From a bacterium (GTDB taxonomy: Bacteria; Sysuimicrobiota; Sysuimicrobiia; Sysuimicrobiales; Humicultoraceae): a stretch of DNA of 27,362 bases. Numbering within the stretch: position 1 is the first letter of the stretch; each line of letters starts with the position of its first letter. Location of the stretch: positions 1 through 27,362 of the forward strand of contig JBGQGY010000035.1 of the NCBI GenBank assembly GCA_041497675.1, read 5' to 3'. The notes beneath the pieces were generated by a model. The model ran no database searches, had not been told where the DNA came from, and saw only the letters and a list, made by a program, of their open reading frames with translations. Shown piece by piece: positions 6,188 to 27,362 of this stretch. Made by a program: the position numbers and the translations under genes.

Positions 6188-6198
6188 GCTTCTATTCT

Positions 6199-6274
6199 TA
6201 ACCCCCAAATCAGCCTTGACAAGTTAATTCCCAGATCGGGATAATGTAACCATCAAACGATCATTAGCAGGTTA
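6199..6274. promoter_or_regulatory. Two copies of a TAACC-N18-RGTTA dyad (6199-6226, 6247-6274), candidate operators, interleaved with a TTGACA-N18-GATAAT promoter (6216-6245) for the dinB gene
   Basis: Read directly: TAACCcccaaatcagccttgacaAGTTA and TAACCatcaaacgatcattagcaGGTTA. AT-rich intergenic region between divergent genes; AGGAGG RBS at 6277-6282. Confidence 0.7.
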
Positions 6275-6288
6275 ACAGGAGGTCCATC

Positions 6289-9493: not shown

Positions 9494-9659
9494 CGTACCC
9501 ACCTCCAGGGAGACCAGAACCCTCCCATATCATCAATCTACCCATGTACCCCTATCGCGGACCAGACCGGCGGCACACAAACCGCCTAGACGCATTTCGG
9601 CCCGCGGTCGCGATATTCCCGCCGCGAGGATGCACACAGGGCGCAACGAAGATAGTGTC

Positions 9660-11767: not shown

Positions 11768-12603
11768 TCCGCACGAGTTATCACACCCACAACCGTTTCT
11801 GCGACGGCGCCGGTGAGGCGGAGGACTACGCGGAGGCGGCCGTGACGGCGGGGCTCGAGGCCTTGGGGATCTCGTGCCACGCACCGCTTACGTTCCCCGA
11901 CGAGGCCGCGATGAAGGCCGAAAGTCTCCCGGCGTACTGTGCCGAGGTGACGCGGCTCAAAGACGTGCACCGCGCGCGGCTGCGGGTCCACCTGAGCCTG
12001 GAATTTGACTACATTCCCGATCGGCACGCGGAGCTATGGTCGATCGTCGCCCCGCACGCGTTCGACTACTTGATTGGATCGGTGCACTTCGTCGGGCAGG
12101 ACGACCGCGGTATCCCCTGGCCGGTCGATCTGAGCCGATCGGGATTCGAGGACGGCCTGCGACGGTATTACGATGGCGACATCCGCCGGCTCGTCGGCGC
12201 GTACTACGAGCAGGTCCGCCGCCTGATCGGGTGGGGTGGCGTGGCCATCCTCGGCCATCTCGACCGTATCAAGAAGTGGAATGACGCCGGGCGTTACTTC
12301 AACGAGGACGACTCCTGGTACCGGAGTGACGTCGAAGCCACGCTGCAGGCGTGCGCGCGCTCGGCGTTGATCGTCGAGATAAATACCGTTGGCTGGCGCA
12401 ACGCCTGCCGGAGTCCGTATCCCAGTCCATGGATCGTCCGCCGCTGTCTCGACCTGAAGATCCCGCTGGTCGTCACGACGGACGCCCACGCGCCGCAGCG
12501 CGTGACCGACTTCCACCCCGAGGCCGAGGCGCTGCTCCGCGACGCCGGCTGCCGAGAGTTGGCCGTGCTGCGCGACGGCGGCTGGCGGATGGAGCCACTG
12601 TGA
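11764..12603 (+). CDS. PHP-family histidinol-phosphatase (HisJ/HisK-like)
   Basis: YHTHNRFCDG, SCHAP, LEFDY, DYLIGSVH, GHLDRIKK, EINT.G, TDAH. GTG start at 11764 (GTGA overlap), not 11386. Confidence 0.88.
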   Translation: MIRTSYHTHNRFCDGAGEAEDYAEAAVTAGLEALGISCHAPLTFPDEAAMKAESLPAYCAEVTRLKDVHRARLRVHLSLEFDYIPDRHAELWSIVAPHAFDYLIGSVHFVGQDDRGIPWPVDLSRSGFEDGLRRYYDGDIRRLVGAYYEQVRRLIGWGGVAILGHLDRIKKWNDAGRYFNEDDSWYRSDVEATLQACARSALIVEINTVGWRNACRSPYPSPWIVRRCLDLKIPLVVTTDAHAPQRVTDFHPEAEALLRDAGCRELAVLRDGGWRMEPL

Positions 12604-13697
12604 CGCTCATCAGCGGTGAACAGAATTTGCTACATTGGCGTGCACCAGTCATTTTGCTCATACTACTGTTGCTCTGGTTGTCTCTTCCTTTCGCGATGGC
12701 TGGAAGTCCGGGAGATCAAGAGATCTCTGTGGGGAGCTTCTACGGTGCGGTAGGTGCCCGTTGGTGTGGGAAGGCAGCATTGCTGATCGAAGGCGAGGCC
12801 GGACTGGAGTGGCTAGACGTGCTGCAAGGTCGGCGGGTGACCGTTACGACGACCCGCGGCGACCATGCAATGAATTGCAGTTTTGATGGCAAGTGGGTAG
12901 TGTATACTACCCGGCCAGCGGAACCGATTGTTGACACATACCCATCGAAGGATTCTGCGTGGGACCGACTTATCGACTTCCTCTGGCGTTTCGAAGTGTC
13001 AAGCGGCGTCAGGCAGCGATTCGCTGCTGTCCGCTCTCCTTATGTGTACGACGCTATGGCTCCCAGCATGATGCGTGTGTTTCTGGGCGGGCCGGTCAAT
13101 ACGCAGGTTCGCATGCCAGCCCCGAGATGGGAAGCTGTTCGATTCCGGCAGGATCGAACCCAAGGTCCGATTGTGTGGTTCCGAGACTCTTCGGGAGTTC
13201 TTGATGTTGCCCGTGATCCCGGAACTCGGGTTTTCATTGAGGTGTTCGGGAGGAACGGAACGAGCAAGACGGTCGACCCAGGTCTAGGGCAACTCTCCGG
13301 CACGGCAACCGACCGCGGCGGTCGAATCTACCTCCGAACTGTTGACCGGCAGCCTCCTACCGTGGCTGTACTCCATCGATGCGAGTTCCAGGGCAATCGT
13401 CTCGTATGTAGGCAGCTTCTCAAGGGCCTCTTTGCGTTTGATGTTGCCCCCGACGGTGGAATTGTCCTCGCGGAGGAAGGTGCGACATGCGTTCGATACA
13501 TCCCCGCGGGGCGGACGGATGGGGAATGTATCGTGCGTAGCTTTCCGTCTCGTTTCCCGTTACTCGAGCCGATGGGTGTTTCGCCTGACGGCAGGTGGCT
13601 CGTCTTTGTTCGGAGAGTGGTTAGACCGTTCTCCCCGGGAATTCAACGACCGGTCGAACGAACCCACATTTTCTTGAGAAGGCTTCCGAGTTGGTGA
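12600..13697 (+). CDS. Hypothetical secreted protein, possibly TolB/PD40-like beta-propeller
   Basis: Open frame from GTG 12600; hydrophobic signal-like segment ending AMA; repeated SFDGKWVVY / APDGGIV / SPDGRWLVF motifs; lower GC and atypical codon usage. Confidence 0.62.
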   Translation: MTLISGEQNLLHWRAPVILLILLLLWLSLPFAMAGSPGDQEISVGSFYGAVGARWCGKAALLIEGEAGLEWLDVLQGRRVTVTTTRGDHAMNCSFDGKWVVYTTRPAEPIVDTYPSKDSAWDRLIDFLWRFEVSSGVRQRFAAVRSPYVYDAMAPSMMRVFLGGPVNTQVRMPAPRWEAVRFRQDRTQGPIVWFRDSSGVLDVARDPGTRVFIEVFGRNGTSKTVDPGLGQLSGTATDRGGRIYLRTVDRQPPTVAVLHRCEFQGNRLVCRQLLKGLFAFDVAPDGGIVLAEEGATCVRYIPAGRTDGECIVRSFPSRFPLLEPMGVSPDGRWLVFVRRVVRPFSPGIQRPVERTHIFLRRLPSW

Positions 13698-13860: not shown

Positions 13861-14679
13861 CTACACGGCCGGCTTTGTCGCCTTCAACGAAAAGCTCAGC
13901 GGCAGTTCGCCGGGGAAGTCGGCGGGCAGCCACCAGGTGCCGTCCTCCCGGCGCTCGAGAAACGGCAGCATCGGATAGAAGAGAAAGGGAAATTCGTGAA
14001 GGAAGTCGATCCGCAGTCCCGCCTCGGCGATGGCGGTCACGATCTCTCCCATGCTGTGGGGCCACGCGTACTGGACAGACTGCGTCACGTGGGCGTCGCG
14101 GTCCGCGTACGACCCCCGCACCGGGAACGGCAGCGGATCCGTCCGGTCGAAGTATGGGTAGAGCAGCCGAAGATCTTTTGCATCGTCCCCGTCATCCCAC
14201 GGGTACAAGATGGGATGTTGCTCTGTGATGTAGAAGAAGCCTCCGGGCCGGAGAAAACGCGCGATCACGCGCGCCCAGCGGCGCAGGTCGGGCAGCCAGC
14301 CCAGCACGCCGCGTGACGTGTAGACGACGTCGAACTCACCGCCAAGCGCCTCGGGCAGATCCAGCACGTCGGACCGGATGAAACGCGCGTCGATCACCAG
14401 TTCAGCGGCAAGCGATCGCGCGAGATCGATCGCCCGCTCTGAAAAATCGACACCGGTGACCCGGGCTCCGAGCCGAGCCCACGACAGCGTGTCGTCCCCG
14501 ATGTGGCATTGCAGGTGCAGCAGCGACTTCCCGGCGACATCGCCCACTTCAGCGATCTCGTGAGGCTTGAGACAGATGCCGCCCTTCTTGAACCCTTCCA
14601 GATCGTAGAACGTCGACTGTGCGTTGATGACCGCCCACTCGTCCCACAGGGCGCGGTTGGTCACTCGGAATATATCCAT
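13861..14679 (-). CDS. Class I SAM-dependent methyltransferase
   Basis: GKSLLHLQCHIG, VTGVDFS, FDVVYTSRGVLGWLPDL, LRPGG. Confidence 0.9.
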   Translation of the reverse strand: MDIFRVTNRALWDEWAVINAQSTFYDLEGFKKGGICLKPHEIAEVGDVAGKSLLHLQCHIGDDTLSWARLGARVTGVDFSERAIDLARSLAAELVIDARFIRSDVLDLPEALGGEFDVVYTSRGVLGWLPDLRRWARVIARFLRPGGFFYITEQHPILYPWDDGDDAKDLRLLYPYFDRTDPLPFPVRGSYADRDAHVTQSVQYAWPHSMGEIVTAIAEAGLRIDFLHEFPFLFYPMLPFLERREDGTWWLPADFPGELPLSFSLKATKPAV

Positions 14680-14750
14680 GCATCCACTGTAGCAGCCGAC
14701 GGACCTATCGCGGGAGGTGCGTTGCTTCAGGTGTCGAACGCGCGCGTGGG

Positions 14751-15122
14751 ATGCGGATCGTCATCTTCGTGTTGAGCGCGGCGGTGATCGTGTCCGGCTG
14801 CGGACCGCGGGCCGCCGACGTCGCCGGTATCTGGCAGGGCACCTGGACAGGCGCGGATGGGCAATCCTCAGGCGACTTTCGCGTCGACGTGCAGCAGCGC
14901 GGCAAGACGATCGGCGGCGAGATTACCCTCAGCCTGGACTGGCTTGCCAAGGCGCGCATCGCAGGCGTCGTCGAAGGTCAAAAGGTCCGCTGGGGCGTGC
15001 TCCGCGAGAACCTGGTCGTCCTCACGTTCGAGGGCCAGGTCGACGGAGACACGGCGCGCGGGACGTACACGATCGGCGCAACTGCGCAGGGACGCTGGAA
15101 CGCCCGCCGCGCGGCGCGCTGA
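14751..15122 (+). CDS. Hypothetical small lipoprotein, beta-rich
   Basis: MRIVIFVLSAAVIVSG-C lipobox; G.W.G.W and G.W.A.R patterns of small beta-barrel domains. Confidence 0.72.
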   Translation: MRIVIFVLSAAVIVSGCGPRAADVAGIWQGTWTGADGQSSGDFRVDVQQRGKTIGGEITLSLDWLAKARIAGVVEGQKVRWGVLRENLVVLTFEGQVDGDTARGTYTIGATAQGRWNARRAAR

Positions 15123-15131
15123 AGACGACGG

Positions 15132-15902
15132 CTAGAAGTAGTTGGACGTGATCCCGCCGTCGGCCACCATCACCGCGCCGTTTGTCCACGTCGATTCGTC
15201 TGACGCCAGGTAAAGCGCCAAATTCACGATGTCTTCGGGGCGGCCAAAGCGTCCCATCGGGATGCGCGCGAGCCGCAGCGCCTTCGCGTCGGGATTCGTG
15301 AGCAGCCACGAGGTCAGCAGCGGCGTCTCGATCGGCCCGGGGCAGATGGCGTTGGTGCGGATGTTCTTCGAGCCGAACTGCACGGCGAGCGACTTGGTGA
15401 GTGCGATGACCCCACCCTTGCTGGCGGTGTAGGCATCCTGGGGCACGGTGCACCCCACCAGCGCCACGAACGACGCGATGTTGACGATCGACCCGCCGCC
15501 CGCCCGCATGAGCGCCGGGATCCCGTGCTTGCACACCAGGAAGATACTCTTGAGGTTGACGTTCATGACACGATCCCAGATCGCCTCGTCCACGTCGATG
15601 ACCGACCCATCCTCGGCGGGAAAGATGCCGGCGTTGTTGTAGAGCACGTTGACGCGGCCAAAGGCCTGCTCGCCGGCGCGCACGACGGCGGCCACATCGG
15701 CCTCTTTGGACACATCGGTGCGGACAAAGACGGCCTCACCCCCGGCCTTGCGGACCGCCGCCACCGTTTCCTGACCGGGCGGCTCGGCGATTTCGCTGAC
15801 GACGACCTTCGCGCCCTCTTTCGCGAATACCACCGACGCCAGCCGCCCCATCCCGCTGCCCGCGCCGGTGATCAATGCCACTTTGCCCGTGAGACGTCCC
15901 AT
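15132..15902 (-). CDS. Short-chain dehydrogenase/reductase (classical SDR)
   Basis: TGAGSGMG, NNAGI, catalytic S (IASF) and YTASK, ICPGPIETP, DGG; GGAGG RBS upstream. Confidence 0.93.
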   Translation of the reverse strand: MGRLTGKVALITGAGSGMGRLASVVFAKEGAKVVVSEIAEPPGQETVAAVRKAGGEAVFVRTDVSKEADVAAVVRAGEQAFGRVNVLYNNAGIFPAEDGSVIDVDEAIWDRVMNVNLKSIFLVCKHGIPALMRAGGGSIVNIASFVALVGCTVPQDAYTASKGGVIALTKSLAVQFGSKNIRTNAICPGPIETPLLTSWLLTNPDAKALRLARIPMGRFGRPEDIVNLALYLASDESTWTNGAVMVADGGITSNYF

Positions 15903-15926
15903 CGTGATCCCTCCGTGGTCCCGCGC

Positions 15927-17234
15927 TCACAGCGCCAGACCACCGATCAAGCCGGCGACGCCTCCCTTTCGAAAGAGCGCCACCGTCCGATCAGCCGGCA
16001 GTTTCCGGCTCTCGAGCCGCCGGCGAATCGGCAACAAGAAGCGTTCCTCCGCCCGCCCGCGCCGCCGCAGGGCTTCTTCGCACAGATCGACGATCCCCGC
16101 AAGAAACCCCGGGGCAGGTTCGGGCGCGCGCAGACCCAGCCGGATCACCTCGCGGCGATATCCCGCCATGGCCGGCCACGGATCCGATCCCACACGGTCC
16201 TGCACGTATGTCATGACGCTGGGCATCGCCTCAACGAGCGCGAGCGACAGCGCCGCGGCGGCCAGCGGCTCGTCCGGCGGTTGCTGGCAGGCGGGGCGGA
16301 TCTCGATCGTGGCGTTCTTCACGCGGGGTCTCGCGCTGTTCCAGGTGTAGTGCTCGTGCCAGAGAAACATCTCGTAGTCGGATCCGTGCGTCGCCAGGTA
16401 GGCAGTGAACGGCCGGCTGTATTGGACGAAGCGGTGGCCCCGGCGCAGTGAATAACACCGCTGCGCGCACACGAACGCCACGTAGTCCTCGAGGGACGTG
16501 AACCGCCGGGGTGTCATGCCGTGCCGGTGCTCCCCGAGACCCCCAAGCAACCCTTCGCGCCCAGAGACATACTGCCCCACGCGTCCCGCGTAAACCGATG
16601 AGTTCGCGGTCAACGCGATGATCGGCCCCGACACGAGATTCATCACGTTGATCGCGTCAACCAGCTCGCCCCGCGCGACGTCCACCTGCACCTGGTCGCT
16701 GGCCGTCGTGGTGAAGTGCAGCCACGGGCGGCCGATCGCCCGACAGAGCGGAGCGTATCGCCGCTTTGGCGTCATCAATGCCAGGGTCCCACGCGTGCGG
16801 GGCTGGATGCCATACCCCAGCACCCGCATGCCGCGCGATGCCGCGAGCCGGCTCAGACGCGACACCGCCGGCCCCGACAGCGCCTCCAGTTGGTGCAGAT
16901 CATCGGCGGGCGGGAAGACGATCTCGGCCGTGGCCCGTCCGACCTCCACCTCGTAGCCGATCCGCCCCAGGTCGATGCGCACGATCATCCCGCGGCGCGC
17001 CGGATCATCATAGGTGACGTTCTGCCCACCTTCCTCCAGCAGCGGCTCCCAGAGCCGCGAGGTCTCGCCGGCGCGGCCGTCCGGCAGGACCAACGGAAAC
17101 TCGGCCTCGCGCCCGATTTTTCTCGGACCGCGCAGGGACAAAGGAAAATCATTCCTCATCCGCTGCGCCAGACGGTCGATGGCCGCCTGCACGCGTGCGC
17201 TCAGAACGACGGGTAGTTGGACGCGTCCGGGCAC
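15927..17234 (-). CDS. Glutamate-cysteine ligase family 2 (GCS2)-like carboxylate-amine ligase
   Basis: KIGREAEF, EVEVG...E, G.GIQP, TTTASDQVQVD, ALTANS, WNSARPR...TIEIR. Start uncertain (GTG 17234, GTG 17192 or ATG 17159). Confidence 0.78.
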   Translation of the reverse strand: MPGRVQLPVVLSARVQAAIDRLAQRMRNDFPLSLRGPRKIGREAEFPLVLPDGRAGETSRLWEPLLEEGGQNVTYDDPARRGMIVRIDLGRIGYEVEVGRATAEIVFPPADDLHQLEALSGPAVSRLSRLAASRGMRVLGYGIQPRTRGTLALMTPKRRYAPLCRAIGRPWLHFTTTASDQVQVDVARGELVDAINVMNLVSGPIIALTANSSVYAGRVGQYVSGREGLLGGLGEHRHGMTPRRFTSLEDYVAFVCAQRCYSLRRGHRFVQYSRPFTAYLATHGSDYEMFLWHEHYTWNSARPRVKNATIEIRPACQQPPDEPLAAAALSLALVEAMPSVMTYVQDRVGSDPWPAMAGYRREVIRLGLRAPEPAPGFLAGIVDLCEEALRRRGRAEERFLLPIRRRLESRKLPADRTVALFRKGGVAGLIGGLAL

Positions 17235-17860
17235 AGGCGGTACACCCGGTGGCCGATCAGGCGGCCGTCGGCGTCCAGGTGAAACTGGTTCAATTCAAGG
17301 TTGACGATGTCGTCGCGCAGCGACGCGTAAGGATCCAGCCCGCGCAGCTCGCCGTGCAGTTGCTGCATGAAGTTCTGGTGAGACGAGACGAGCACGCGCT
17401 TGCCCCGGTGCGCGCCGAGGGTCCGAGTGAGGAACGCGCGCGCCCGGGCCCGCAACGTCTCGAACGACTCGCCGCCCGGTGGGTTGAGCGAGTACCGGAC
17501 GTGTTCGATCGGCAGGTAGATCACGGATGGAAACTTCTCACGAATCTCGTCCTGGGTCAGCCCTTCCATCTCGCCGAAGCTGCGTTCGATGGCCAGATCG
17601 TCGATGAGCATCTGCTCGCGCGTCCAGCCGGTGACGATCTCGGCCGTCTCGATCGCGCGGCGTAGGCTGGACGCGATCACCACGTCGATCGGCGTCCCGT
17701 CGAAGTTGCCGCGGGCGTCCTGGGCCTGCTGACGGCCCACGTCGAGCAAGGGGGCATCGAGCCGGCCCCCGGTGCGTTTCGAGCGGTTGAGCTCGGTGAG
17801 CCCGTGTCGCAGCGTATAGAGCAGCGTCTGGCCGGGAGCAAGAACGGGTTGATCGATCAT
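17201..17860 (-). CDS. Histidine phosphatase (phosphoglycerate mutase) family protein
   Basis: LRHGLTELN, SSLRRAIETA, ERSFGEMEG, PPGGES, LVSSH. Confidence 0.9.
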   Translation of the reverse strand: MIDQPVLAPGQTLLYTLRHGLTELNRSKRTGGRLDAPLLDVGRQQAQDARGNFDGTPIDVVIASSLRRAIETAEIVTGWTREQMLIDDLAIERSFGEMEGLTQDEIREKFPSVIYLPIEHVRYSLNPPGGESFETLRARARAFLTRTLGAHRGKRVLVSSHQNFMQQLHGELRGLDPYASLRDDIVNLELNQFHLDADGRLIGHRVYRLCPDASNYPSF

Positions 17861-17874
17861 CCCTCAGGCGTCTC

Positions 17875-19821
17875 CTACAGATTCCTGATCTGGACGGGCC
17901 GAGCGGGTTCGGCCGCATCGAACCCGAAGACGCGCGAGTAGAAGTAGAGCTCGGCATCCAGCGCCTGCCTGATGTTCTCTGCGCGGCGGAACCCGTGCTG
18001 CTCGCCCTCAAAAGGCACATAGGCCACCGGGATGCCCCTTTCGCGCAGCGCGGCAAACATTCGCTCCGCCTGGTTGGGCGGCACGACCTTGTCCTCGAGC
18101 CCTTGGAACAAGATCAGCGGGCACGAGACGCGGTCCACAAAGTGGATCGGCGATCGCTGCACGTACAGGTCGCGGCGCTCCGGATAGGGCCCGACCAGCC
18201 GGTCGAGATAGCGCGACTCGAACTTGTGTGTCTCGGTGGCCAGGGCCTCGAGATCGCTGACCCCATAGTAGCTGGCCCCCGCCGTGAAGACGTGACGAAA
18301 CGCCAGCGCCGCCAGCGTCGTGTAGCCGCCCGCGCTGCCCCCGCGGATCGCGAGCCGCCTCCCGTCTACCTGGCCGCGCTCCACGAGGTACCGCGTCCCG
18401 TTGACACAATCGTCGATGTCGACGATGCCCCACTGGCCGTTGAGCCGCTCTCGATAGGCCCGGCCGTATCCCGTGCTGCCACCGTAGTTCACATCCAGCA
18501 CGGCAAAGCCGCGGCTCGTCCAGAACTGGATACTGAGACTCAGCGTGTTCGATGTCGCGCCCGTCGGCCCGCCGTGGCTGATCACTAGCAGCGGGGGCCG
18601 TTCTCCTGCCGGGGCGGCATAGTCCGTGTTCCTCGGAGCATAGAAGAATGCGTGCGCGGTGTTGCCCTGTTCGGTCGGGAACTCAATCGCCTGGGGGATC
18701 GACAGATAGCCGGAATCGATCGGATGCTCCCAGCTGCGGCGCAGCACTTTGACATCACCTGTGGTCGTGTCCACTGTGACAATCGAGGGGGCTTCTGTAG
18801 GCGACCCACCCAGGAAGACGGCTCGCCCGGGCGCGGCACGGACACTGGCAATCTCGGTGTAGGGCACATCGATCGGTCGCAGCGTTCGAGTGGTGAGATC
18901 CAGCTCGGCCAGGTGCCAGATCCCACGCTGAGTATACGAACAGATGATGCGAGCGGGTGACGCGAACGCGTAGGTCGACATCCCAAAGACCCATTGGGGC
19001 CCGCCGAATTCAGCCTCCAACTCGATAAGGATGTCGGCGCGTCCGCCGTGCAGGCGGTAAAGGTTCCACCACCCGGTCCGATCCGACACGAAGTGCAAGA
19101 TCCCGTCGGGCGACCACTCGGGTTGGAAGATGGACTCGTCGGTGCCACCCGCCACGAGTTCCGCCCGGGCCACGGAGCCGTCGCCGGCGAGTTCGCCCAC
19201 CCACAGGTCGGTGCCGTCCCACGGCATGTTGGGATGGTTCCACGCGAGCCAGGCCAGACGCGACCCATCGGGGCTGAGACGAGGAGATGAATAGAAATCG
19301 TATCCGGAGGCCAGCACCCGGACCGGTCCGCGTCCTTCGATATCGAGGCTCACCAGCGTGTTGACGGCTTCGCGTGCTCCGGCCGTGTGATCTTCGCGAA
19401 CGCAGATGATTCTCTCGCGGCGCCGGTCGATCCCGCCGTCGGCATAGCGCAGGGTCCGCCCGGGAGCGCGGGGGGGCACGTGCTCGGGCAGCGGGGAGAT
19501 GGGTCGCGGTGCCGCGCCGGGATCCTGGCGGTAGAGCCGCTGGTCGGCAAAGTGTGAAAAGTAGACCACGTCGCGGTCGGCGATGTAGGCGCCGCCCCCG
19601 TATTCATTGGCCAGCGTGCGGGCGTTGAAACCCGGCGGCGTCACGTCGACCGTGCGGCCGTCGGGAGTGCGCCGGACCACGACGGAACGACCCTCCTCCG
19701 CCGGCCGTGTCTCCAGCCAGCAGACTTCGTCCCCGTCAAGGACGACTCGCTCCAGGCGGACGGCAGCCGTCGCGATCAGATCGGCGGTGATCGGCGACTT
19801 CCAGGAGCCGTACGACGCCAC
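17875..19821 (-). CDS. S9 family serine peptidase (dipeptidyl/acylaminoacyl peptidase-like)
   Basis: YGSWKSPI N-terminus, [30 protein letters not shown], nucleophile GGSAGG, QGLED, EQHGF. Confidence 0.95.
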
Positions 19822-19825
19822 GATG

Positions 19826-21184
19826 CTATCCTTCCACTTCCGTCAGCGACGCGTCCAAGATGTCCAGGGCGCGGTCCATCTCGTCGCGCGTGACCACCAG
19901 CGGGGGGCTCAGCAGGATGACGTTGCCCATCGTCAGTTTGAAGCTCAACCCTTTCGACAACGCGCAGTACATCACGGTTTCGGCCTGCGCCGTCGCGCGG
20001 GCGCGTGTGACGCGGTCGGTCACGAGCTCGATTCCCAAGAGCAGCCCCAGGCCTCTCACGTCACCGATCAACGGGTGCCGGTCTTTCATCGCGGTGAGAC
20101 GATCGAGGGCGTATCGGCCCAGATCTCGCGCGTGCGCCAGGAGCCCGTGTTGTTCGATGTAGCGGATCGTGGCGAGCGCCGCGGCAGCGGCGACCGGGTT
20201 TTTCTCGTGCGTATAGTGGCCCAGCGCCATCTCACCGGCGACGTCGAACCGCTCACGGGCGATCAGCGCCGCCAGAGGGAAGACCCCTCCGCCCAGACCC
20301 TTTCCGAGGACCAGCATGTCCGGGACGACGCCGTAGTGCTCGCAGGCGAACATCGCGCCCGTCCGCCCCAACGCCGTGGGAATCTCATCGAGAATCAACA
20401 ACGCGTTGTGTCGGTCACACGCGCGCCGGACGACCTGCCAATAGTCGCGCGACGGGATCACCGGGACGCTTCGCACCGTCTCGGCCACAACCGCCGCGAC
20501 GTCGCCTTCCTGTTCCAGCACGTATTCGATGTGCGACGCGCACTTGAGGTCGCACCCGCCCCGGTGATGACAATCCCACTGGCACCGATAGGGATCCGGC
20601 GGCGGCACGTGTTCTGCGCCCGGCATAAGCGGGCCCATGTCGCGCCGGAACAGCTCCTCTCCCCCGACGGAAATCGCGTCGAGCGAGGCGCCGTGAAACG
20701 AATCCCACATGGAGATGGTCTTGTACCGGCCGGTGACGACGCGAGCGAGCTTCAGCGCCATGCCAATGGCGCCGGTCCCGCTGGGACACAACAAGACTTT
20801 GTTGAGATCGCCCGGTGCCAGTTCGACGAGTGTTCTGGCCAGGTCCACGGCGACCCGATTCGTGTAACGGCGTGGGCTGAAGGACAACTCGTCGAGCTGC
20901 GTCTTGATGGCCGCCAGGACGTCGGGATTCCCGAACCCGACCTGATGCACGCTGTTGCCGTGGAAGTCCATGTAGCGGCGGCCCTGGAGGTCTTCGATGA
21001 AGATCCCGTCGCACCGCCGCAACGCGTTCAGACACGGCGTCGACAGCGACTGGTGGAGGAAGTAGCGCGCATCGTCCTCGAGCAGCGCGCGCGTCTGACC
21101 ATCGAGCGCGGCCGCCTGCCAGGCGGCGCGCTGAGCAGACACGTTGACGTCGCCCTCGGACTGCGTGCGCGGAGTCTCGCTCAT
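19826..21184 (-). CDS. pbfA: (R)-1-hydroxy-2-aminoethylphosphonate ammonia-lyase (class III aminotransferase fold, PLP)
   Basis: Motifs I recognise from Pbf[58 protein letters not shown] Lys in [17 protein letters not shown]. An aepX homologue lies about 5 kb away. Confidence 0.88.
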
Positions 21185-22113
21185 GCAGACCTTGGTGGTT
21201 CCCGCCGCTGCGCGAAACTCCTGCCCGCGCGATGCCTCTCCGGTATCGCGGCCAGAAAGGCCGCCAGCAGAGGAGAGAGCACGCGGTCGGCGTGGTAGAC
21301 GAGCGCGAAATCCAGGCTGAGCGGCTCGCGCAGCCGGCGGCCGATCAGGCGGCCGGCGGCGAGTTCCTGCGCGACCGCGGCGTGGGCCATGATCGCGACC
21401 CCAAGACCGTCGGCCACCGCGCTCTTGATCGCCTCGTTGCTTTCCAATTCCATCGATGGCTCCGCGCTGAGGCCGTGCGCCTGAAACGCCTGCTCGATCA
21501 GGCGCCGCGTGGTGGAGCCGGGCTCGCGCAGAATCAGCGGGGACCCGCGGAGATCCTGGATCGACACGATCGACTTTCGCGCGAGGCGGTGATCGGGCGG
21601 GAGCACAACCAGCATCCGGTCGCGGATCAACGGCCGGGAGATCAAGTGTGGATCATCCGGCCGGCCGGCGATGAGGCCAGCGTGCAGCGTAAAGTCCACG
21701 ATGCCGGTCAGGATCATCTGCGAGTTGCCTACCGACAGGCTGACTTTGACCCCAGGGTACCGGCGCTTGAAACGGTCGAGCAGGTCGGATACGTAGTAGG
21801 CGCCAGCCGTGCGGCTGGCGCCTATTTTGAGGTGCCCCGTCTGCAGAGCCGCCGCACCCTCCAGCGCGTCACGAGCGGCATCCACCAAATGGAAGATGCG
21901 CCCGGCAAACGCCTCCAGGGTCTGTCCGGCCTCGGTCAGGGCCAGCCGCCGGCCGTTCCGGTGGAAGAGTTTCAGCCCGACCGCCTGCTCCAGACGGCGA
22001 ATCTGCTGCGTGACCGCGGGCTGGGTGATCCCGAGCGCGCGCGCAGCCTTGTTGACACCCTGGTGGCTCACCACCTGATGAAATGTTCTCAACGGAACGA
22101 GTAGTATGTCCAT
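21181..22113 (-). CDS. LysR-family transcriptional regulator, probable aminophosphonate-responsive activator
   Basis: HTH AARALGITQPAVTQQIRRLE, LTEAG, LKIGAS, REPGSTTR, SNEAIKSAV..GLG. Stop overlaps the pbfA start (ATGA). ATG 22113 is preferred over 22131. Confidence 0.93.
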   Translation of the reverse strand: MDILLVPLRTFHQVVSHQGVNKAARALGITQPAVTQQIRRLEQAVGLKLFHRNGRRLALTEAGQTLEAFAGRIFHLVDAARDALEGAAALQTGHLKIGASRTAGAYYVSDLLDRFKRRYPGVKVSLSVGNSQMILTGIVDFTLHAGLIAGRPDDPHLISRPLIRDRMLVVLPPDHRLARKSIVSIQDLRGSPLILREPGSTTRRLIEQAFQAHGLSAEPSMELESNEAIKSAVADGLGVAIMAHAAVAQELAAGRLIGRRLREPLSLDFALVYHADRVLSPLLAAFLAAIPERHRAGRSFAQRREPPRSA

Positions 22114-22123
22114 GTGCGAAAAG

Positions 22124-22140
22124 CATAACATGATTTTATG
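22124..22140. promoter_or_regulatory. LysR-type recognition site CATAA-N7-TTATG (T-N11-A)
   Basis: Perfect 5-bp dyad in the divergent intergenic region. It overlaps the putative lysR -10 (TATGCT, minus strand 22127-22122) and lies 21 nt upstream of the TTGACA of the divergent promoter. Confidence 0.75.
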
Positions 22141-22161
22141 ATTTGGACCAGAATACCTTAT

Positions 22162-22191
22162 TTGACATTATGAAACGCGACGTCCGATAAT
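22162..22191 (+). promoter_or_regulatory. Sigma70-type promoter TTGACA-N18-GATAAT for the CoA-transferase operon, likely leaderless
   Basis: TTGACA 22162-22167, GATAAT 22186-22191, in-frame ATG at 22199 with no SD sequence. Confidence 0.7.
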
Positions 22192-22198
22192 GCTCGTG

Positions 22199-23116
22199 AT
22201 GCCTCCTAACAAGGTCATGACCGCCGCCGAGGCGGTCGCGCGCTTCGTCCATCCGGGCAACGTACTCGGGATGGGTGGACAGAACATCGGCCGCTGCCCG
22301 ATGGCCCTCACCCACGAGATCATCCGCCAGCGCGTCGGGGGCCTGACCGTGGTGGGTTGTAACCTCTCCCTGTCGATGGATCAACTCGCCGCGGCCGGTC
22401 TCATCCGGCGGACCGAGTGCGGCACGGGCAACCTGGAGCGATTTGGGACGACGTTCAGCTGGCGCCGGGGCATCGAAAACGGCACGATCGAGATCGAGGA
22501 CTACAGCCACCTGGCGATGGTCAGCCGTTTCCTGGCCGGCGAGATGGGTCTCCCGTTCATGCCGGTACGCAGCCTGCTTGGGTCGGATATCCTGTGGGCC
22601 CCGGACGGCGCGCCGAAGCCCGGCAAGGCCGTCATCACCGAGAACCCGTGGGATCCGGCCGAGCGTGTGGTGCTGGTCCGGGCGCTGCAGCCGGACGTGT
22701 CGATCGTCCACGCGCAACGCGCCGATGCGGTCGGGAACGTCATCATCGAAGGGTTCGCGACGCACGAGCCGGAGATGATGCGCGCGTCCCAGCACGTGAT
22801 CGTCTCGTGCGAAGAGTTGGTCACGACCGACGAGATCCGCGCGCACCCCGAACGCACGACCATCCCGTTCATGTACGTTCACGCAGTCGTTGTCCAGCGG
22901 TACGGTGCGTTTCCGACGTCAACGTACGCCTACTACGACTACGACGGCGGCCAGATCGGCGCGTATCAAGACGCCGCCCGGACCGGGTCGCCGGCGATCG
23001 ACGAGTACCTGCGGCGTCACGTCTGGGGATGCGGCACGTTCGACGACCACCTCCATCTGGCCACGGACGCCGATCGCCTCACGACCCTCACCCATGCGAT
23101 GCAGGAGTTGATGTGA
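22199..23116 (+). CDS. Family I CoA-transferase alpha subunit (GctA-like)
   Basis: KVMTAAEAVARFV..G, R.PMAL.HEIIRQ, EDYSH, AGEMGLPFMP.RSLLGSD, PDVSIVHAQRAD..GN, VIVSCEE, GAFPT. Confidence 0.9.
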   Translation: MPPNKVMTAAEAVARFVHPGNVLGMGGQNIGRCPMALTHEIIRQRVGGLTVVGCNLSLSMDQLAAAGLIRRTECGTGNLERFGTTFSWRRGIENGTIEIEDYSHLAMVSRFLAGEMGLPFMPVRSLLGSDILWAPDGAPKPGKAVITENPWDPAERVVLVRALQPDVSIVHAQRADAVGNVIIEGFATHEPEMMRASQHVIVSCEELVTTDEIRAHPERTTIPFMYVHAVVVQRYGAFPTSTYAYYDYDGGQIGAYQDAARTGSPAIDEYLRRHVWGCGTFDDHLHLATDADRLTTLTHAMQELM

Positions 23117-23931
23117 TGTCGCGCGAGACGCCGCACCTTGCGCCGTTTTCCCGTCAGGAGCTGATGGTGATCGAAGCGGCCCGGCAGCTGCGGGACGGCG
23201 ACATCGTGTTCGTCGGCACCGGTCTGCCGATGCTGGCGACCACCCTGGCCCAACGCACGCACGCGCCCGACGTGGTCATGGTCATCGAAAGCGGCGTCAT
23301 CGCGCCCCAGGTGCGTCCAACGCCGATCTCGGTTTCGGACCCCAAAGCCATGTACCGGGCGATGAAGCTCGGCACGCTGCGCGAGGTCCTGGGGTGTCTG
23401 CTGCAGCGCGGGTTGATCGACGTGGGCTTTGTCGGCGGCGCTCAGATCGACCGGTATGCCAACATCAACTCGACGCAGATCGGGCCCCCCGGCGCGATGA
23501 AACGGCGGCTGCCTGGGAGCGGCGGCGCGAACGACATGGCGTCGCACTGCCGGCGTCTGCTGATCATCACCCACCACGAGAAGCGGCGCTTCCCCGAGCG
23601 GTGCGATTACGTCACCAGCCCAGGGTTTCTCGATGGACCCGGCGGCCGCGCGCGCGTCGGATTGAACCCGGACTTCGCTGTGACCGTCGTGACCGATCTC
23701 GCCGTGATGGAGAACGACCCGCGCACCTGCGCGCTGCGCATCGTCCGGCTCATGCCCGGCATCACGGTTGAGGACGTGCGTGCCGAAACCGGGTTCCGCC
23801 CCGACGTGGCGCCGGATCTTCGCGAGGTCCCTCCGCCGGACGCGGAGGTGTTGGACAGGCTCCGGCACGACGTGGATCCGGGGCGCGTATATCTGAAATC
23901 GGAAGACGCCGTACCAACGGCCGGGAGGTAA
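23116..23931 (+). CDS. Family I CoA-transferase beta subunit (GctB-like)
   Basis: ATG overlaps the alpha-subunit stop (TGATG) with a GGAG RBS; VFVGTGLP, IESG (catalytic Glu retained), GGAQIDRYANINST, GSGGAND, VTSPG. Confidence 0.9.
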   Translation: MSRETPHLAPFSRQELMVIEAARQLRDGDIVFVGTGLPMLATTLAQRTHAPDVVMVIESGVIAPQVRPTPISVSDPKAMYRAMKLGTLREVLGCLLQRGLIDVGFVGGAQIDRYANINSTQIGPPGAMKRRLPGSGGANDMASHCRRLLIITHHEKRRFPERCDYVTSPGFLDGPGGRARVGLNPDFAVTVVTDLAVMENDPRTCALRIVRLMPGITVEDVRAETGFRPDVAPDLREVPPPDAEVLDRLRHDVDPGRVYLKSEDAVPTAGR

Positions 23932-23934
23932 CCA

Positions 23935-24789
23935 ATGGACGCGAAGGCCGTGAAAGAACGCGAGCCGTTTCACTGGCAGACATCGATCGCCTACAAGAAC
24001 AAGGACAAGATCGTCGTCCGCGGCTACGACAACAACGACCTCACGGGCAACGTGACGTTCACCGAGATGGCCTACCTGGTCTGGCGGGGCGACCTGCCGC
24101 CGGCGAACCACGCCCGCATGCTTGACGCGCTGCTGGTCAGCATGGCCGAGCACGCGTTCTCACCGTCGTCGGCCGCCTGCCGCTTTGTCGCGTCGGGCGG
24201 GGTGCCCCTCCACGTCGGTGTGGCGGGCGGGATGCTGGCCATCGGCTCGCTGCACGGCACGGCCGACCGCCCGGCGCAACTCTTCACAGACGCGGTCGAG
24301 CGGATGCGGACGGACGGTCTGACCATGCCGGAAGCGGCGTACAAGGTCGCGGGAGAAGCGCGCGCCGCGGGCCGCCGCCTGCCCGGGTACCACCACGCGC
24401 AGCACATCATCGACCCACGGACGGCGCGCATACTGGGGTTGTCCGACGAGTACGGCATCTCGGGCGCGTACGTCGCGATGGCCAGAGCCATCGAGGCCGC
24501 CACGGAGGAGTTCTGGGGGCGGCGGATCTACCTCAACGGCCCAGGGGCCATGGGCGCGGTCTGCCTGGACATGGGGTTTGACGTGGAACTGATCAAGGGT
24601 GTGTTCTTGCTGTCGCGCACCGTCTCGCTGATCGCGCACACGTACGAAGAGATGCACCGAGAGAAGGGCTGGCGGGCGTCGACCAACTCGCCTATTGTCC
24701 AACCCCTGGATCTGTCGTTGCAGAAGCCGGAATTCTACGACGGGCCGCGCGACCGCCCGCTGCCGAAGTCGCAGGGCGGCGGACGGTGA
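23935..24789 (+). CDS. Short citrate-synthase-family / citryl-CoA-lyase-like protein with altered active site
   Basis: W.TSI......I.VRGY...DL.G N-terminus, L...G.LP, AEH..SPS, G.LHG, LPGYHH..H..DPR, LNGPGA, SR...L.AH..EE; GGAGG RBS. Confidence 0.82.
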   Translation: MDAKAVKEREPFHWQTSIAYKNKDKIVVRGYDNNDLTGNVTFTEMAYLVWRGDLPPANHARMLDALLVSMAEHAFSPSSAACRFVASGGVPLHVGVAGGMLAIGSLHGTADRPAQLFTDAVERMRTDGLTMPEAAYKVAGEARAAGRRLPGYHHAQHIIDPRTARILGLSDEYGISGAYVAMARAIEAATEEFWGRRIYLNGPGAMGAVCLDMGFDVELIKGVFLLSRTVSLIAHTYEEMHREKGWRASTNSPIVQPLDLSLQKPEFYDGPRDRPLPKSQGGGR

Positions 24790-26249
24790 GCGCGCGCGCG
24801 GCGCTGCTCGAAGGGATCCCGCAGGGCCTGTTCATCGGCGGGCGGTGGGAAGAGAGTCGATCCGGCCGCACGATCCCAACCCACAATCCGGCAACCGGCG
24901 AACTCCTCGCGCAGGTGCCGCTTGCAGACGCGGCGGACGTCGATCGCGCTGTCCAGGCGGCCGCTGCCGCGTTCCCCGCGTGGTCGGAGATGCCCGGCCC
25001 GCAGCGGGGAGAGCGCCTCCGCGCGGTGGCGGCTGCGCTCCGCGAGCACCGTGAGGCGCTGGCGCATCTCGACGCCGTCAACTCAGGCAACATCATCGCC
25101 GGGATGCGCCGCGACGTCGATTGGGCCATCGACTCCCTCGAATACTTCGCCGGGCTCATCCCCGAGATCAAAGGCGAGACGCTCCCGTCGGACGCCGCCC
25201 TCTTCCACTATACGGTGCGTGAACCGTTCGGCGTCGTCGCCAAGATCAATCCTTACAACCACCCGGTGCGGTTCGCCGCCGAAAAGCTGGCGGCCCCGCT
25301 GGCGGCCGGCAACACCGTTGTGATGAAGCCACCGGAGCAGGCGCCCCTCTCGTCGCTGGTGCTCGGGCGGCTGCTGCAGACGATTCTCCCGCCCGGCGTG
25401 GTGAACATCGTCACCGGTGACGGGCCGACCACCGGCGCCTCGCTCGTCCACCACCCGCTCGTGCGGCGCATCGCGCTCATCGGATCGGTCGAAGCCGGGC
25501 GCGCGGTCATGCGCGCGGCCAGCGACGACCTCAAGACCGTGACGCTCGAACTGGGCGGCAAGAACCCACTCATCTTGTTCCCCGACGTCGACCCTGCCGA
25601 GGCCGCTGACGCGGCCGTCGGCGCCATGAACCTCAACCGTGCCGGCCAATCGTGCAGCAGCACGTCGCGCGTGTTTGTGCACCGCCACCTGCACGACGCG
25701 TTCGTCGAGGCGCTGCTGGCCCGGCTGCGAAACCTGCGGGTCGGGCTGCCGGACGCCGACGACAGCCAGATGGGCTGTCTGATCTCGAGGGAACAGCACG
25801 AGAAGGTGCTGTCGTACATTGAGGCAGGCAAGCGCGAGGGCGCGCGGCTGCTCTTCGGCGGCGGCGTGCCCGATGACCCGGGGCTGCGGCGGGGGTTTTT
25901 CGTCCAGCCCACGTTGTTTGACGGCGTGCGGCCGGAGATGAAGATCGCGCAAGAAGAGATCTTTGGCCCGGTGATCAGCCTCCTGACATGGGACGATGAG
26001 GAGGAGATGCTCCGTCAGGTGAACAGCGTGATCTACGGCCTGAGCGCAGCAGTATACACTCATGACTATGCGAAGGCCCACCGGATCGCGCGGCGGATCG
26101 AGGCGGGGTATATCTGGGTGAACATCCCCGGCGGCCACGTGCTGGGTTCACCCTACGGCGGCATCAAGCAGAGCGGCATCGGCCGGGAAGAGTGCCTGGA
26201 CGAACTGTTGTCCTACACGCAAGTCAAGAGCGTCCGGATGCGGCTGTAG
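24786..26249 (+). CDS. NAD(P)-dependent aldehyde dehydrogenase, PhdK-like subfamily; candidate phosphonoacetaldehyde dehydrogenase
   Basis: REPFGVV, PYNHP, KPPEQAP, IALIGS, LELGGKNP (Glu), GQSCSSTSR (Cys), EEIFGPV, PYGGIKQSGIGRE; GTGA overlap with the upstream gene. Confidence 0.93.
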   Translation: MSARAALLEGIPQGLFIGGRWEESRSGRTIPTHNPATGELLAQVPLADAADVDRAVQAAAAAFPAWSEMPGPQRGERLRAVAAALREHREALAHLDAVNSGNIIAGMRRDVDWAIDSLEYFAGLIPEIKGETLPSDAALFHYTVREPFGVVAKINPYNHPVRFAAEKLAAPLAAGNTVVMKPPEQAPLSSLVLGRLLQTILPPGVVNIVTGDGPTTGASLVHHPLVRRIALIGSVEAGRAVMRAASDDLKTVTLELGGKNPLILFPDVDPAEAADAAVGAMNLNRAGQSCSSTSRVFVHRHLHDAFVEALLARLRNLRVGLPDADDSQMGCLISREQHEKVLSYIEAGKREGARLLFGGGVPDDPGLRRGFFVQPTLFDGVRPEMKIAQEEIFGPVISLLTWDDEEEMLRQVNSVIYGLSAAVYTHDYAKAHRIARRIEAGYIWVNIPGGHVLGSPYGGIKQSGIGREECLDELLSYTQVKSVRMRL

Positions 26250-26310
26250 CAAGGGTTTGGGGCACGGCCGGGGAAATACTGCGCGGAACGCCCACATGAG
26301 GGGGTGCGCT

Positions 26311-27362
26311 ATGCCGCAAGGCGTGAAAGCGACAGGCAAGTTGGCAGTGGCCCTGGTGGCCATTGTGATCCTCGCGATAGGTTTGGCTCCCCAGGCTATC
26401 GCTCAGGCGCCGACGCGATTGACCGTCTACACCGCCATTGAGAATGACCAGTTAGGCTACTTCAAGTCGTCGTTCGAGGCGGACACCCCCGGGGTCATCA
26501 TCGACTGGGTGCGTGACTCGACCGGGGTCATCACGGCCCGCATCCTCGCCGAGCGGGCAAACCCCCGCGCCGACGCCATCTGGGGACTGGCCGTCACCAG
26601 CCTGTTGATCTTCGAAGACCAGAACATGCTCCAGCCGTACACACCTCGAGGCGCGGATGCTCTCAAACCCGCGTTCCGCGACAGCAAGAACCCCATGAAC
26701 TGGACGGGTATGGACGCCTTCCTGTCTGTGATCTGCTACAACACCGTGGAGGCGAAAAAGCGGGGTCTGCGCGCCCCCTTCTCCTGGCAAGACCTGCTCA
26801 GCCCTGCCTACAAGGGACGGATCGTGATGCCCAACCCGGCATCGTCCGGTACCGGTTATCTCACGATCGCGGCGTGGCTGCAGATGATGGGTGAGCAGAA
26901 GGGTTGGGCGTTTATGGACAAGATCCACGAGAACATCGGTATCTACCTCCACTCCGGCTCGGCGCCGTGCGTGCGGGCGGCGCAGGGGGAGTTCTCGATG
27001 GGCATCGGGTTCGACGGGCGCGGCGCGCTCCTGAAGCAGCAGGGGGCGCCGATCGAAGTCATCATTCCGAAGGAAGGCGCCGGCTGGGACATGGAGGCGA
27101 CCGGCATCATCCGCGGGACGCGCAACCTGGCGGCCGCGCAGCGCCTGGCGGACTTTGCGGTCAGCCGCAAGGCCAACGAGATATACAACGGCGTCGGCGG
27201 GCCGGACCGGACGTCGTACGCGATCGTGGCGCTGCCCGGCATGACCAATGTGCCGCCTTTCTACCCACCGAACGCTGAGAAACAGATGTTCAAGAACGAC
27301 TTCGCGTGGATGGCGAAGAATCGGGACCGCATCCTCCAGGAGTGGGCAAAGCGCTACGACGC
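26311..27362 (+). CDS. aepX: 2-aminoethylphosphonate ABC transporter substrate-binding protein (AepX), 3'-truncated by window edge
   Basis: Not in the ORF track because it has no stop in the window; translated by hand from ATG 26311. Signal peptide, then LTVYTAIE, WVRDSTGVITARILAE, ADAIWGLA, WTGMDA, MPNPASSGTG, YLHSGSAPC, GWDMEA, KNDFAWMAKNRDRILQEWAKRYD. Confidence 0.9.
   Translation, partial: MPQGVKATGKLAVALVAIVILAIGLAPQAIAQAPTRLTVYTAIENDQLGYFKSSFEADTPGVIIDWVRDSTGVITARILAERANPRADAIWGLAVTSLLIFEDQNMLQPYTPRGADALKPAFRDSKNPMNWTGMDAFLSVICYNTVEAKKRGLRAPFSWQDLLSPAYKGRIVMPNPASSGTGYLTIAAWLQMMGEQKGWAFMDKIHENIGIYLHSGSAPCVRAAQGEFSMGIGFDGRGALLKQQGAPIEVIIPKEGAGWDMEATGIIRGTRNLAAAQRLADFAVSRKANEIYNGVGGPDRTSYAIVALPGMTNVPPFYPPNAEKQMFKNDFAWMAKNRDRILQEWAKRYD

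Follow-up and report, generated by a model that had tools for sequence, protein, structure and literature searches.

The window analysed here is a 27,362-nucleotide stretch of DNA that makes up the whole of contig C35 in the assembly of a Humicultoraceae bacterium (phylum Sysuimicrobiota; 3.97 Mb in 272 contigs, 98.6% complete, 3.6% contaminated). It ends in an aminophosphonate gene cluster that joins a family I coenzyme A (CoA) transferase, ctA-ctB, to a citryl-CoA-lyase-fold protein without the catalytic Asp (CCL). We propose that CCL converts phosphonoacetyl-CoA and water to acetyl-CoA and inorganic phosphate (Pi), a third ending of hydrolytic aminophosphonate catabolism, and that the Asp-less family to which it belongs is a CoA-dependent class of enzymes cleaving the carbon–phosphorus (C-P) bond. 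We give both parts of this proposal, drawn from gene sequence and gene context, a probability of about 70%. Three routes would feed the family: an aldehyde dehydrogenase (ALDH) with a CoA-transferase, a ferredoxin oxidoreductase with a CoA-transferase, and an acylating ALDH (carbon kept as acetyl-CoA in anaerobes). In outline this would be hydrolytic phosphonate catabolism of a new form, built around an enzyme not described before.

The gene cluster and the gap at the C-P step

The genes and predicted sites of the cluster are as follows.

19826..21184, minus strand: pbfA (NF049939, 716.7 bits against a cut-off of 525; function per PMC8154272)
21181..22131, minus strand: LysR-type regulator, AepR-like (best match TIGR03339, the aminoethylphosphonate-associated LysR family, 233.6 bits, under the cut-off of 341.1)
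22124..22140, no strand: palindromic LysR-type box CATAA-N7-TTATG (T-N11-A), a sequence pattern
22162..22191, plus strand: sigma70-like promoter TTGACA-18-GATAAT (11/12 matches)
22190..23116, plus strand: ctA, family I CoA-transferase subunit A, glutaconate CoA-transferase-like (PF01144; 1POI_A, E 4.9e-43)
23116..23931, plus strand: ctB, family I CoA-transferase subunit B (PF01144; 1POI_B, E 5.5e-51)
23935..24789, plus strand: CCL, 284-residue citryl-CoA-lyase-fold protein, no catalytic Asp (PF00285; 6HXP, E 3.3e-40)
24786..26249, plus strand: ALDH, non-acylating type, outside the PhnY family (256.5 bits on the PhnY model TIGR03250, cut-off 635.65, in a scan of proteins of the window)
26311..27362, plus strand: aepX, truncated where the contig stops (2-aminoethylphosphonate-binding protein; TIGR03261, 448.1 bits against 392.75)

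The operon is tightly packed: ctA and ctB overlap by 1 nt (TGATG), a gap of 3 nt separates ctB from the CCL reading frame, CCL and ALDH overlap by 4 nt (GTGA), and 61 nt lie before the ATG of aepX, which is still open at the contig end. The lysR and pbfA genes overlap by 4 nt and are divergent from the ctA operon. An earlier reading of the DNA letters (the original prediction) had listed this gene set and the junctions within the operon, and all of them were reproduced from coordinates and sequence. The last 1133 bases of the window (26230-27362) overlap positions 10307-11439 of contig C116 at 95.1% identity, so that the assembly is probably a mixture of two strains or contains the sequence twice; with the overlap short of full identity, we only infer the join between the contigs. 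The gene order on C116 is aepX-aepV-aepW-phnW, then convergent GcvT-like flavin adenine dinucleotide (FAD) oxidoreductases and a class III aminotransferase, with scores above cut-off on TIGR03265 (507.4), TIGR03262 (808.7) and the phnW model TIGR02326 (C116:6338-7411, 493.3 bits against 400.8). In seven other loci (L010, L019, L076, L078, L130, L148 and L155) the series ctA-ctB-CCL-ALDH-aepXVW-phnW lies entire on a single contig, and neither phnX nor phnA was found downstream of phnW there.

PbfA and PhnW yield phosphonoacetaldehyde, whose usual fate, in the accessible text of three papers, is PhnX or PhnY-PhnA (PMC8154272, PMC12366243, PMC10574752). The original prediction stated that the window holds no phnX, phnA or C-P lyase gene, and a scan of its 26 proteins bore this out, with no match to phnX, phnA, phnZ or C-P lyase models. 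Genome-wide, the best scores were 45.6 bits for phnX (cut-off 220), 60.1 for a PhnX-like model (cut-off 218.9) and 119.1 for palA, the phosphonopyruvate hydrolase (cut-off 374.4). There was no match to phnA at E 0.001, with a model that finds 12 of 94 relatives, and none to phnJ, with a positive Escherichia coli control; PF01663 gave a single weak match. For phnZ there was no match in the genome and TIGR03276 hit 0 of 94 genomes at E 1e-15, in a search whose positive control gave no signal. A search for phnX, phnA or phnJ elsewhere in the assembly or past aepX thus found none at cut-off, and found phnW on C116. With pbfA, aepXVW and phnW present and none of the known C-P enzymes found at cut-off, this 98.6% complete genome therefore has, by gene content, a hole in the pathway at the C-P step. 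A phosphodiesterase-like gene that lies beside pbfA in some loci was also considered as the C-P enzyme and is ruled out here, as it has no tblastn match in the genome.

The citrate-synthase-fold protein and its proposed chemistry

The PDB entry closest to CCL by sequence is 6HXP. For a model of a 59%-identical relative, P0119 (mean predicted local distance difference test score 69.6), 6HXP is also the top Foldseek match (E 5.3e-12), so that the model, which supports the fold only, confirms the citrate-synthase helical fold for this relative. In a FastTree phylogeny of 175 non-redundant sequences, CCL belongs to a monophyletic clade of 51 members (support 0.998; 0.89 in a smaller tree), with 124 sequences outside. 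Position 203 is Asp in 0/51 clade members vs 86/124 outside; the clade has Pro, Leu, Val, Ala, Ile, Met or Ser, and CCL of the window has Pro203, with N-G-P-G in place of N-V-D-G. We take the N-V-D Asp to be Asp375 of pig citrate synthase and D1026 of ACLY, and presumably catalytic in citrate synthase. Conserved in the clade are His73, Arg162 and Arg228 (51/51 each), His107 (50/51) and Asn201; the His and Arg residues presumably bind citryl-CoA or oxaloacetate and stabilise the enolate. Other features are specific to the clade, for example Lys21 (50/51 vs 0/124), His153 (46/51 vs 0/124), Phe12-His13, Gln156, Trp246 and a C-terminal L-D-L-x-L-Q-x-P insert. In ATP citrate lyase, D1026 is described as essential, with a debated role, in the accessible part of PMC10115795.

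Judged by sequence, the clade fails membership as citryl-CoA lyase, since it lacks the Asp and CCL scores below cut-off on all four PRK06224 'citryl-CoA lyase' models (222.5/245, 207.9/212, 190.8/193 and 168.2/261). With the catalytic Asp lost, the mechanism therefore cannot simply be citryl-CoA lyase chemistry. Of the proposal that CCL is a citryl-CoA-lyase-type C-P enzyme, the fold has thus stood and the plain lyase chemistry has not. It is scarcely credible that CCL is an ordinary citryl-CoA lyase which, with a citrate CoA-transferase, sits in a phosphonate cluster by chance. The nearest structure is the Hydrogenobacter citryl-CoA lyase, and in databases these proteins carry the labels citryl-CoA lyase or citrate synthase, but the missing Asp and the low scores speak against this, as do the Asp-type homologues of the same phylum (32-36% identical), which lie in unrelated neighbourhoods with phosphonate markers (pbfA, phnW, aepX, hpnZ and pepM at fixed identity thresholds) in 0/16 loci. 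If our proposal is true, the clade is currently mislabelled.

The partner enzymes can be compared with known families in the same way. The ESG motif of ctB aligns with that of 1POI_B, and Glu58 is present in 59/59 related subunits; by sequence, ctB retains the catalytic Glu of family I CoA-transferases. The best match of the ALDH is betaine-aldehyde dehydrogenase (487 bits against a cut-off of 668.6). It keeps Glu255 and Cys290, and it is 34% identical to Sinorhizobium meliloti PhnY over 356 residues, with a common P-F/Y-N-H-P motif. The His of this motif, which in PhnY we take to bind phosphonate, is His159 here and is found in 28/28 orthologues and in 0/8 paralogues listed from the genome. 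On these scores the ALDH is not a member of the PhnY family.

In the proposed pathway, AepXVW would import 2-aminoethylphosphonate and its 1-hydroxy form, and PhnW and PbfA would convert them to phosphonoacetaldehyde (the reactions are from the literature and the gene identities by sequence). The ALDH would oxidise phosphonoacetaldehyde to phosphonoacetate, the CoA-transferase would make phosphonoacetyl-CoA with acetyl-CoA or succinyl-CoA as donor, and CCL would cut the C-P bond to release acetyl-CoA and Pi. With acetyl-CoA as donor, the net reaction of the transferase and CCL would equal that of PhnA; in other lineages the same thioester would be reached via an acylating aldehyde dehydrogenase. 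CCL would work like citryl-CoA lyase in that an acyl-CoA would lose a group from its C2 and be left as acetyl-CoA. More speculatively, phosphorus would take the place of C3 of citryl-CoA, with its oxygens gripped by His73, Arg162 and Arg228, and His107 would steady the thioester enolate as phosphorus departs, either as metaphosphate trapped by water or by way of a phospho-His. Loss of the Asp could take negative charge away from the dianion, and the proton might come from His153, His157, Lys21 or the released phosphate.

The same active site could use phosphonoacetyl-CoA other than by simple hydrolysis, either by condensing its acidic C2 with a carbonyl co-substrate, for example oxaloacetate or glyoxylate, and then eliminating phosphate, in the manner of a Horner-Wadsworth-Emmons (HWE) reaction, or by passing the phosphoryl group on to an acceptor that is not water. 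All of the gene-context evidence would fit equally; His73, Arg162 and Arg228, which in this fold bind oxaloacetate or citrate, are kept; and a doubly activated C2 could react without a strong base, which would account for the loss of the Asp. We nonetheless consider this unlikely. No conserved neighbour gene that would supply a co-substrate or process a product is seen across the 99 loci described below, a one-for-one exchange with phnA is simplest with an identical net reaction, and, as general chemistry, free phosphonate dianions are poor HWE reagents.

Distribution, exchange with phnA and distant relatives

All 94 genomes of the phylum set were searched, with an orthologue defined as a protein at least 75% identical to the 284-residue CCL. 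An orthologue is found in 23 genomes and a 39%-identical sister gene, adjoining pbfA in both cases, in 2 more, which gives 25 clade-positive genomes. (Two unpublished genomes, G017 and G024, are within the 23 and within the 19/29 and 22/25 given below; their removal alters no conclusion.) PhnA scores above cut-off in 12/94 genomes, none of them among the 25, so the mutual exclusion of the block and phnA that the original prediction had asked about holds in this phylum. PhnX is above cut-off in 0/94, with partial matches of 173-178 bits in G006 and G020, both clade-negative, and phnJ is present in two genomes, both phnA-positive and clade-negative. The 29 genomes with pbfA divide into 19 with the orthologue, 2 with the sister gene, 6 with phnA, 1 with a phnX-like gene (G020) and 1 with nothing (G054), and 12 of the 13 phnW genomes carry the clade. 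Either pbfA or phnW is found in 22/25 clade genomes vs 8/69 others, a comparison for which we do not rely on a p-value because related genomes are not independent. The ALDH orthologue occurs in 17/94 genomes, 16 of them clade-positive; G067, a phnA genome, has an ALDH orthologue alone at another site. Beyond the phylum, the clade was found in 3/168 genomes of a Latescibacterota-labelled phylum, a plasmid collection gave distant homologues only (at most 38% identical among 15 listed; all 102 below 60%), and no cultured host of the clade was identified.

Two side observations concern these genomes. In G020 and G006, the divergent phnX-like HAD protein (L157:6538-7359 and L158; about 175 bits against 220) has its own LysR, ABC (ATP-binding cassette) transporter and class III pyridoxal 5'-phosphate (PLP) enzyme. 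In G023, an in-frame TAG lies inside pbfA (L184:4849-6114), and the CoA block, aepXVW and phnW are intact.

A replacement at a single site bears on the substrate. In family f4 the locus has ArsN1, a short-chain dehydrogenase/reductase (SDR) gene and a glnA-like gene on one strand, then a variable slot, a class III aminotransferase, a liv-type ABC transporter and, farther on, pbfA. The slot is occupied by lysR and ctA-ctB-CCL in the genera that carry the clade, with ALDH present or absent (L012, L017, L018, L149, L191), and by phnA in 6/6 genomes of genus g21 (L143, L145, L183, L192, L193, L194). When the two forms are compared, the proteins on either side of the slot share 66-81% identity. ALDH is missing from clade loci L013, L015, L016, L018, L085, L088, L089 and L091, and likewise from the phnA loci. 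The swap points to phosphonoacetate as the predicted input of the ctA-ctB-CCL trio.

This family also shows other genes of possible interest. In 5/6 g21 genomes the gene immediately 5' of phnA encodes a PLP enzyme resembling CysK (L143:14123-15097, L183:12231-13232). Class III aminotransferases of the PRK06062 type and the liv-type transporter stand beside the CoA block and phnA alike (L012:12407-13732, L149, L143, L145), and phnW is found in 1/23 genomes of the family; this aminotransferase and transporter are candidates for a second 2-aminoethylphosphonate transaminase and importer.

More distant members of the clade were followed through 99 mapped loci, namely 19 genome loci and the best 80 of 162 confirmed metagenome loci, with genes called by a home-made caller and compared by BLAST with reference proteins checked by hidden Markov model. 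Phosphonate markers occur in 38/99 loci and in 28/45 of those of at least 8 kb; after merging at 95% identity, with the 7 phylum loci added, a marker is present in 27/37 long clusters, and after grouping at 70% identity in 5/7 groups. The enzymes beside the clade gene differ between lineages. For instance, ctAB occurs with an aldehyde:ferredoxin oxidoreductase and pbfA, mostly with a ThiS/MoaD-like gene, in L092-L094 and L107, and with a 56-57% identical ALDH and pbfA in L106 and L134. An acylating, SauS-like ALDH occurs with pbfA, phnW or hpnZ in L023, L116, L117, L120, L136, L137, L146 and L147, and together with ctAB in L122 and L124. Every one of these feeder sets could supply phosphonoacetyl-CoA, the sole compound that we can place at their meeting point. 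No protein at least 45% identical to PhnA was found in the 99 loci, and phnX was not found in the distant loci by BLAST to a divergent phnX-like protein, the only test made. The expectation that a four-gene block would recur beside pbfA, aepX or phnW thus held for ctA-ctB-CCL and in part for the ALDH, which is optional and has other oxidising enzymes in its place elsewhere. From sequence comparison, the conserved core appears to be ctA-ctB with CCL, the putative functional match of PhnA.

The block could merely travel with phosphonate genes and act on the carboxylate or sulfonate analogue, either malonyl-CoA, which would derive from beta-alanine and give off CO2, or sulfoacetyl-CoA, which would derive from taurine and give off sulfite; we regard this reading as very unlikely. 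The top model of the acylating ALDHs is sulfoacetaldehyde dehydrogenase (NF047625), at 490-503 bits against a cut-off of 600, class III omega-aminotransferases and a liv-type transporter accompany the block in the f4 loci, and a feeder-less subgroup has amidohydrolase neighbours, with a SauS-like gene among purine and pyrimidine catabolic genes in two Spirochaete-labelled genomes. Against this, the group of the window has the block inside an aepXVW-phnW operon divergent from pbfA, the block swaps with phnA itself, markers (hpnZ, pbfA, phnW and pepM) recur beside five groups, and, the SauS-like ALDH aside, no taurine or sulfonate family was the top match of any neighbour scanned. This alternative bears mainly on the feeder-less subgroup.

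Alternatively, CCL could be a thioesterase or a CoA-handling or accessory subunit, with the C-P bond cut by the CoA-transferase pair, by the histidine phosphatase at 17201-17860, or by a phnX or phnA missing from the assembly. CoA-transferase pairs can do non-transferase chemistry, as in IpdAB; the histidine phosphatase is kept 3' of pbfA in family f1, including G020, which has no block; and the assembly is in 272 contigs. In L117 and L120, a PhnA-like gene (227 bits against 407.55, 32% identical to PhnA) lies in the operon of the clade gene, and an acylating ALDH, the clade gene and this gene could be read as a path from thioester to free acid to PhnA. We find this explanation quite unlikely, since, with a CoA-transferase and a non-acylating ALDH at its side, a thioesterase would create a futile cycle, the histidine phosphatase is absent from the f4 and distant loci, ctB keeps the transferase Glu, and assembly gaps are unlikely to hide phnA or phnX in all 23 genomes. 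In addition, G007 (96% complete) has the clade gene, an acylating ALDH, pbfA and phnW; it lacks phnA, phnX and phnJ, and its locus is free of CoA-transferase genes.

Several points weigh against C-P cleavage by CCL. The missing Asp means that the usual enolate acid/base would be gone, with no evident proton donor, and the canonical second His, His154, is present in the CCL of the window and in 35/51 clade members, with Gln in 16/51. The slot swap is one event among related genomes, and counts therefore overstate independence; all hosts are incomplete metagenome assemblies. G020 (79% complete) has pbfA-aepXVW-phnW without the CoA block, G054 (93% complete) has pbfA and no candidate C-P gene, and 6/12 phnA genomes lack both pbfA and phnW. 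Among the distant loci, 17/45 long ones show no marker. The PhnA-like gene of L117 and L120 may serve free phosphonoacetate where ctAB is missing, or may be the real C-P enzyme there. In L097 and L108 the clade gene is directly 5' of pepM, in a setting of polysaccharide or phosphonate biosynthesis. Neither a feeder gene nor a marker that reaches the threshold is found in a group of 15 loci, some Spirochaete-labelled. Two genomes from it are without phnW, phnX and phnA and have their SauS-like genes among purine and pyrimidine genes; the group may therefore use another substrate such as malonyl-CoA. On the other side, the checks named with the original prediction favoured it overall: there is no phnX or phnA beyond the window, and the block recurs, excludes phnA and fills the phnA slot.

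Three observations on the distant loci can be added. L064, of the feeder-less group, has a PhnW/AepZ-like fragment upstream (302 bits). In L097 (7992-13119) ppd, a nucleotidyltransferase and an Fe-alcohol dehydrogenase accompany pepM; both there and in L108 (2166-3479) the clade gene that precedes pepM could serve overflow disposal or a biosynthetic step. In G004 and G007 an HD-domain gene lies just upstream of the sister gene, with no match to the PhnZ model at E 1e-10.

Related systems, regulation and neighbouring genes

Of the known systems, the proposed pathway is most easily set beside PhnW-PhnY-PhnA of S. meliloti, as far as the accessible text of PMC10574752 and PMC8154272 describes it. 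AepXVW uptake, entry through PhnW and PbfA, and a LysR-type regulator are common to both; phosphonoacetaldehyde would likewise be oxidised to phosphonoacetate, and the net products would be equal if acetyl-CoA is the donor. Unlike that system, this one has no PhnA (alkaline-phosphatase fold, Zn-dependent) and has a CoA-transferase and a citrate-synthase-fold protein instead, and its ALDH is outside the PhnY family. As in the phosphonatase pathway, PhnWX, C-P hydrolysis would be aided by a beta-carbonyl electron sink, which in the source text accessible to us is a Schiff base in PhnX; here PhnX is absent from the genome, the sink would be the CoA thioester, and the variants with an acylating ALDH would yield acetyl-CoA, not acetaldehyde. 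With the citryl-CoA lyase of Hydrogenobacter thermophilus (6HXP) and the CCL module of ATP citrate lyase, the window protein shares fold, length, His73, His107, His154, Arg162 and Arg228, as well as the proposed loss of a group from acyl-CoA C2 leaving acetyl-CoA; it differs in having Pro, Leu, Val or Ala in the clade for the catalytic Asp, in its clade-specific residues and insert, and in its phosphonate gene context. The transferase resembles GctAB (1POI) and other family I CoA-transferases in its two subunits and the catalytic Glu of subunit B, but its proposed acceptor is phosphonoacetate. The SauS or sulfoacetyl-CoA routes (NF047625) also join an anionic acetaldehyde to a CoA ester with an acylating dehydrogenase, and SauS-like genes occur in the distant loci, but there the neighbours are phosphonate genes and scores stay under the SauS cut-off. 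We know of no C-S cleavage at the CoA-ester stage in the known sulfoacetyl-CoA routes.

CoA-dependent C-P cleavage was not found described in the open-licence literature and bioRxiv, a scope that lacks most subscription journals and is therefore no proof of absence. Within it, we also found no C-P-cleaving enzyme of the citrate-synthase fold, in agreement with the original prediction, and no citryl-CoA lyase in open literature on PbfA, phosphonate or CoA-transferase. The accessible text of the PbfA and PbfF papers does not contain the word 'CoA', and that of a 2023 review has it once, at a word start; in the accessible part of the flavophos preprint, phosphonoacetyl-CoA is the predicted product of BsfD and was not obtained. 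The word 'phosphonate' does not occur in either of two listed papers on CSP1-3, the uncultured phylum to which this genome probably belongs. Few enzyme types are known to break the C-P bond, and none was found that depends on a CoA thioester or has the citrate-synthase fold. If our proposal is true, it would add a new C-P-cleaving chemistry and give a function to a mislabelled clade. It would also explain how, in a widespread uncultured phylum, about a quarter of the genomes (25/94) could complete the breakdown of aminophosphonates with neither phnX nor phnA, and would reveal a phosphonate-mineralising route of soil and sediment bacteria that goes uncounted in surveys of phnA, phnX, phnJ and phnZ.

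The lysR gene is divergent from ctA in many related loci; in the window it may really start at its second ATG, at 22113. The LysR-type box lies about 65 nt 5' of the predicted ctA transcript start. A relaxed form of its pattern is found upstream of ctA in 22/33 regions with a lysR neighbour (shuffled mean 0.55, maximum 4), with the pattern derived from the window, rows not de-duplicated and a base-composition shuffle. The sigma70-like site is the sole promoter-like site in 14500-27362, where 1.0 is expected by chance, and a similar site lies upstream of ctA in 6/32 other regions. As it overlaps the ATG at 22190, ctA may be leaderless, starting at the ATG at 22199. The palindrome and predicted promoter between lysR and ctA, recurring in relatives, are in line with substrate induction by AepR-type regulators as given in the accessible part of PMC8316502. 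A terminator scan found 9 against 7.0 expected. The stretch is contained in 20 DNA sequencing runs, with no RNA run among the matches listed.

Other genes of the window and of C116 can be noted. At the opposite end of the contig (21-2755, plus strand), genes for a DapA-family aldolase and a 2-hydroxyacid dehydrogenase follow one for another CoA-transferase B subunit, which shares 44% identity with ctB; no tie to the phosphonate cluster is visible. In a region of about 4 kb (9552-13697), the four reading frames scanned match no Pfam or NCBIfam family. On the minus strand, 3' of pbfA and an S9 peptidase, 15132-17860 holds the histidine phosphatase, a GCS2 (glutamate-cysteine-ligase-family) gene and a PRK06057-type SDR, which accompany pbfA in family f1. 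In family f4 the same place is taken by a glnA-like gene and a similar SDR: one role is filled by two different gamma-glutamyl ligase folds, which may gamma-glutamylate ethanolamine or an aminophosphonate. On C116 (L005:1-1923 and 3856-6306), two FAD proteins resembling GcvT and dimethylglycine dehydrogenase converge on phnW, as they do in L010, L078, L150 and L155, and, speculatively, they might demethylate N-methylated aminoethylphosphonates. The class III PLP enzyme between them (L005:1931-3226) resembles glutamate-1-semialdehyde aminomutase and recurs in L092-L094, L106, L116, L134 and L137, at 58-81% identity across lineages and in or beside phosphonate clusters, which makes it a candidate for a further phosphonate breakdown factor.

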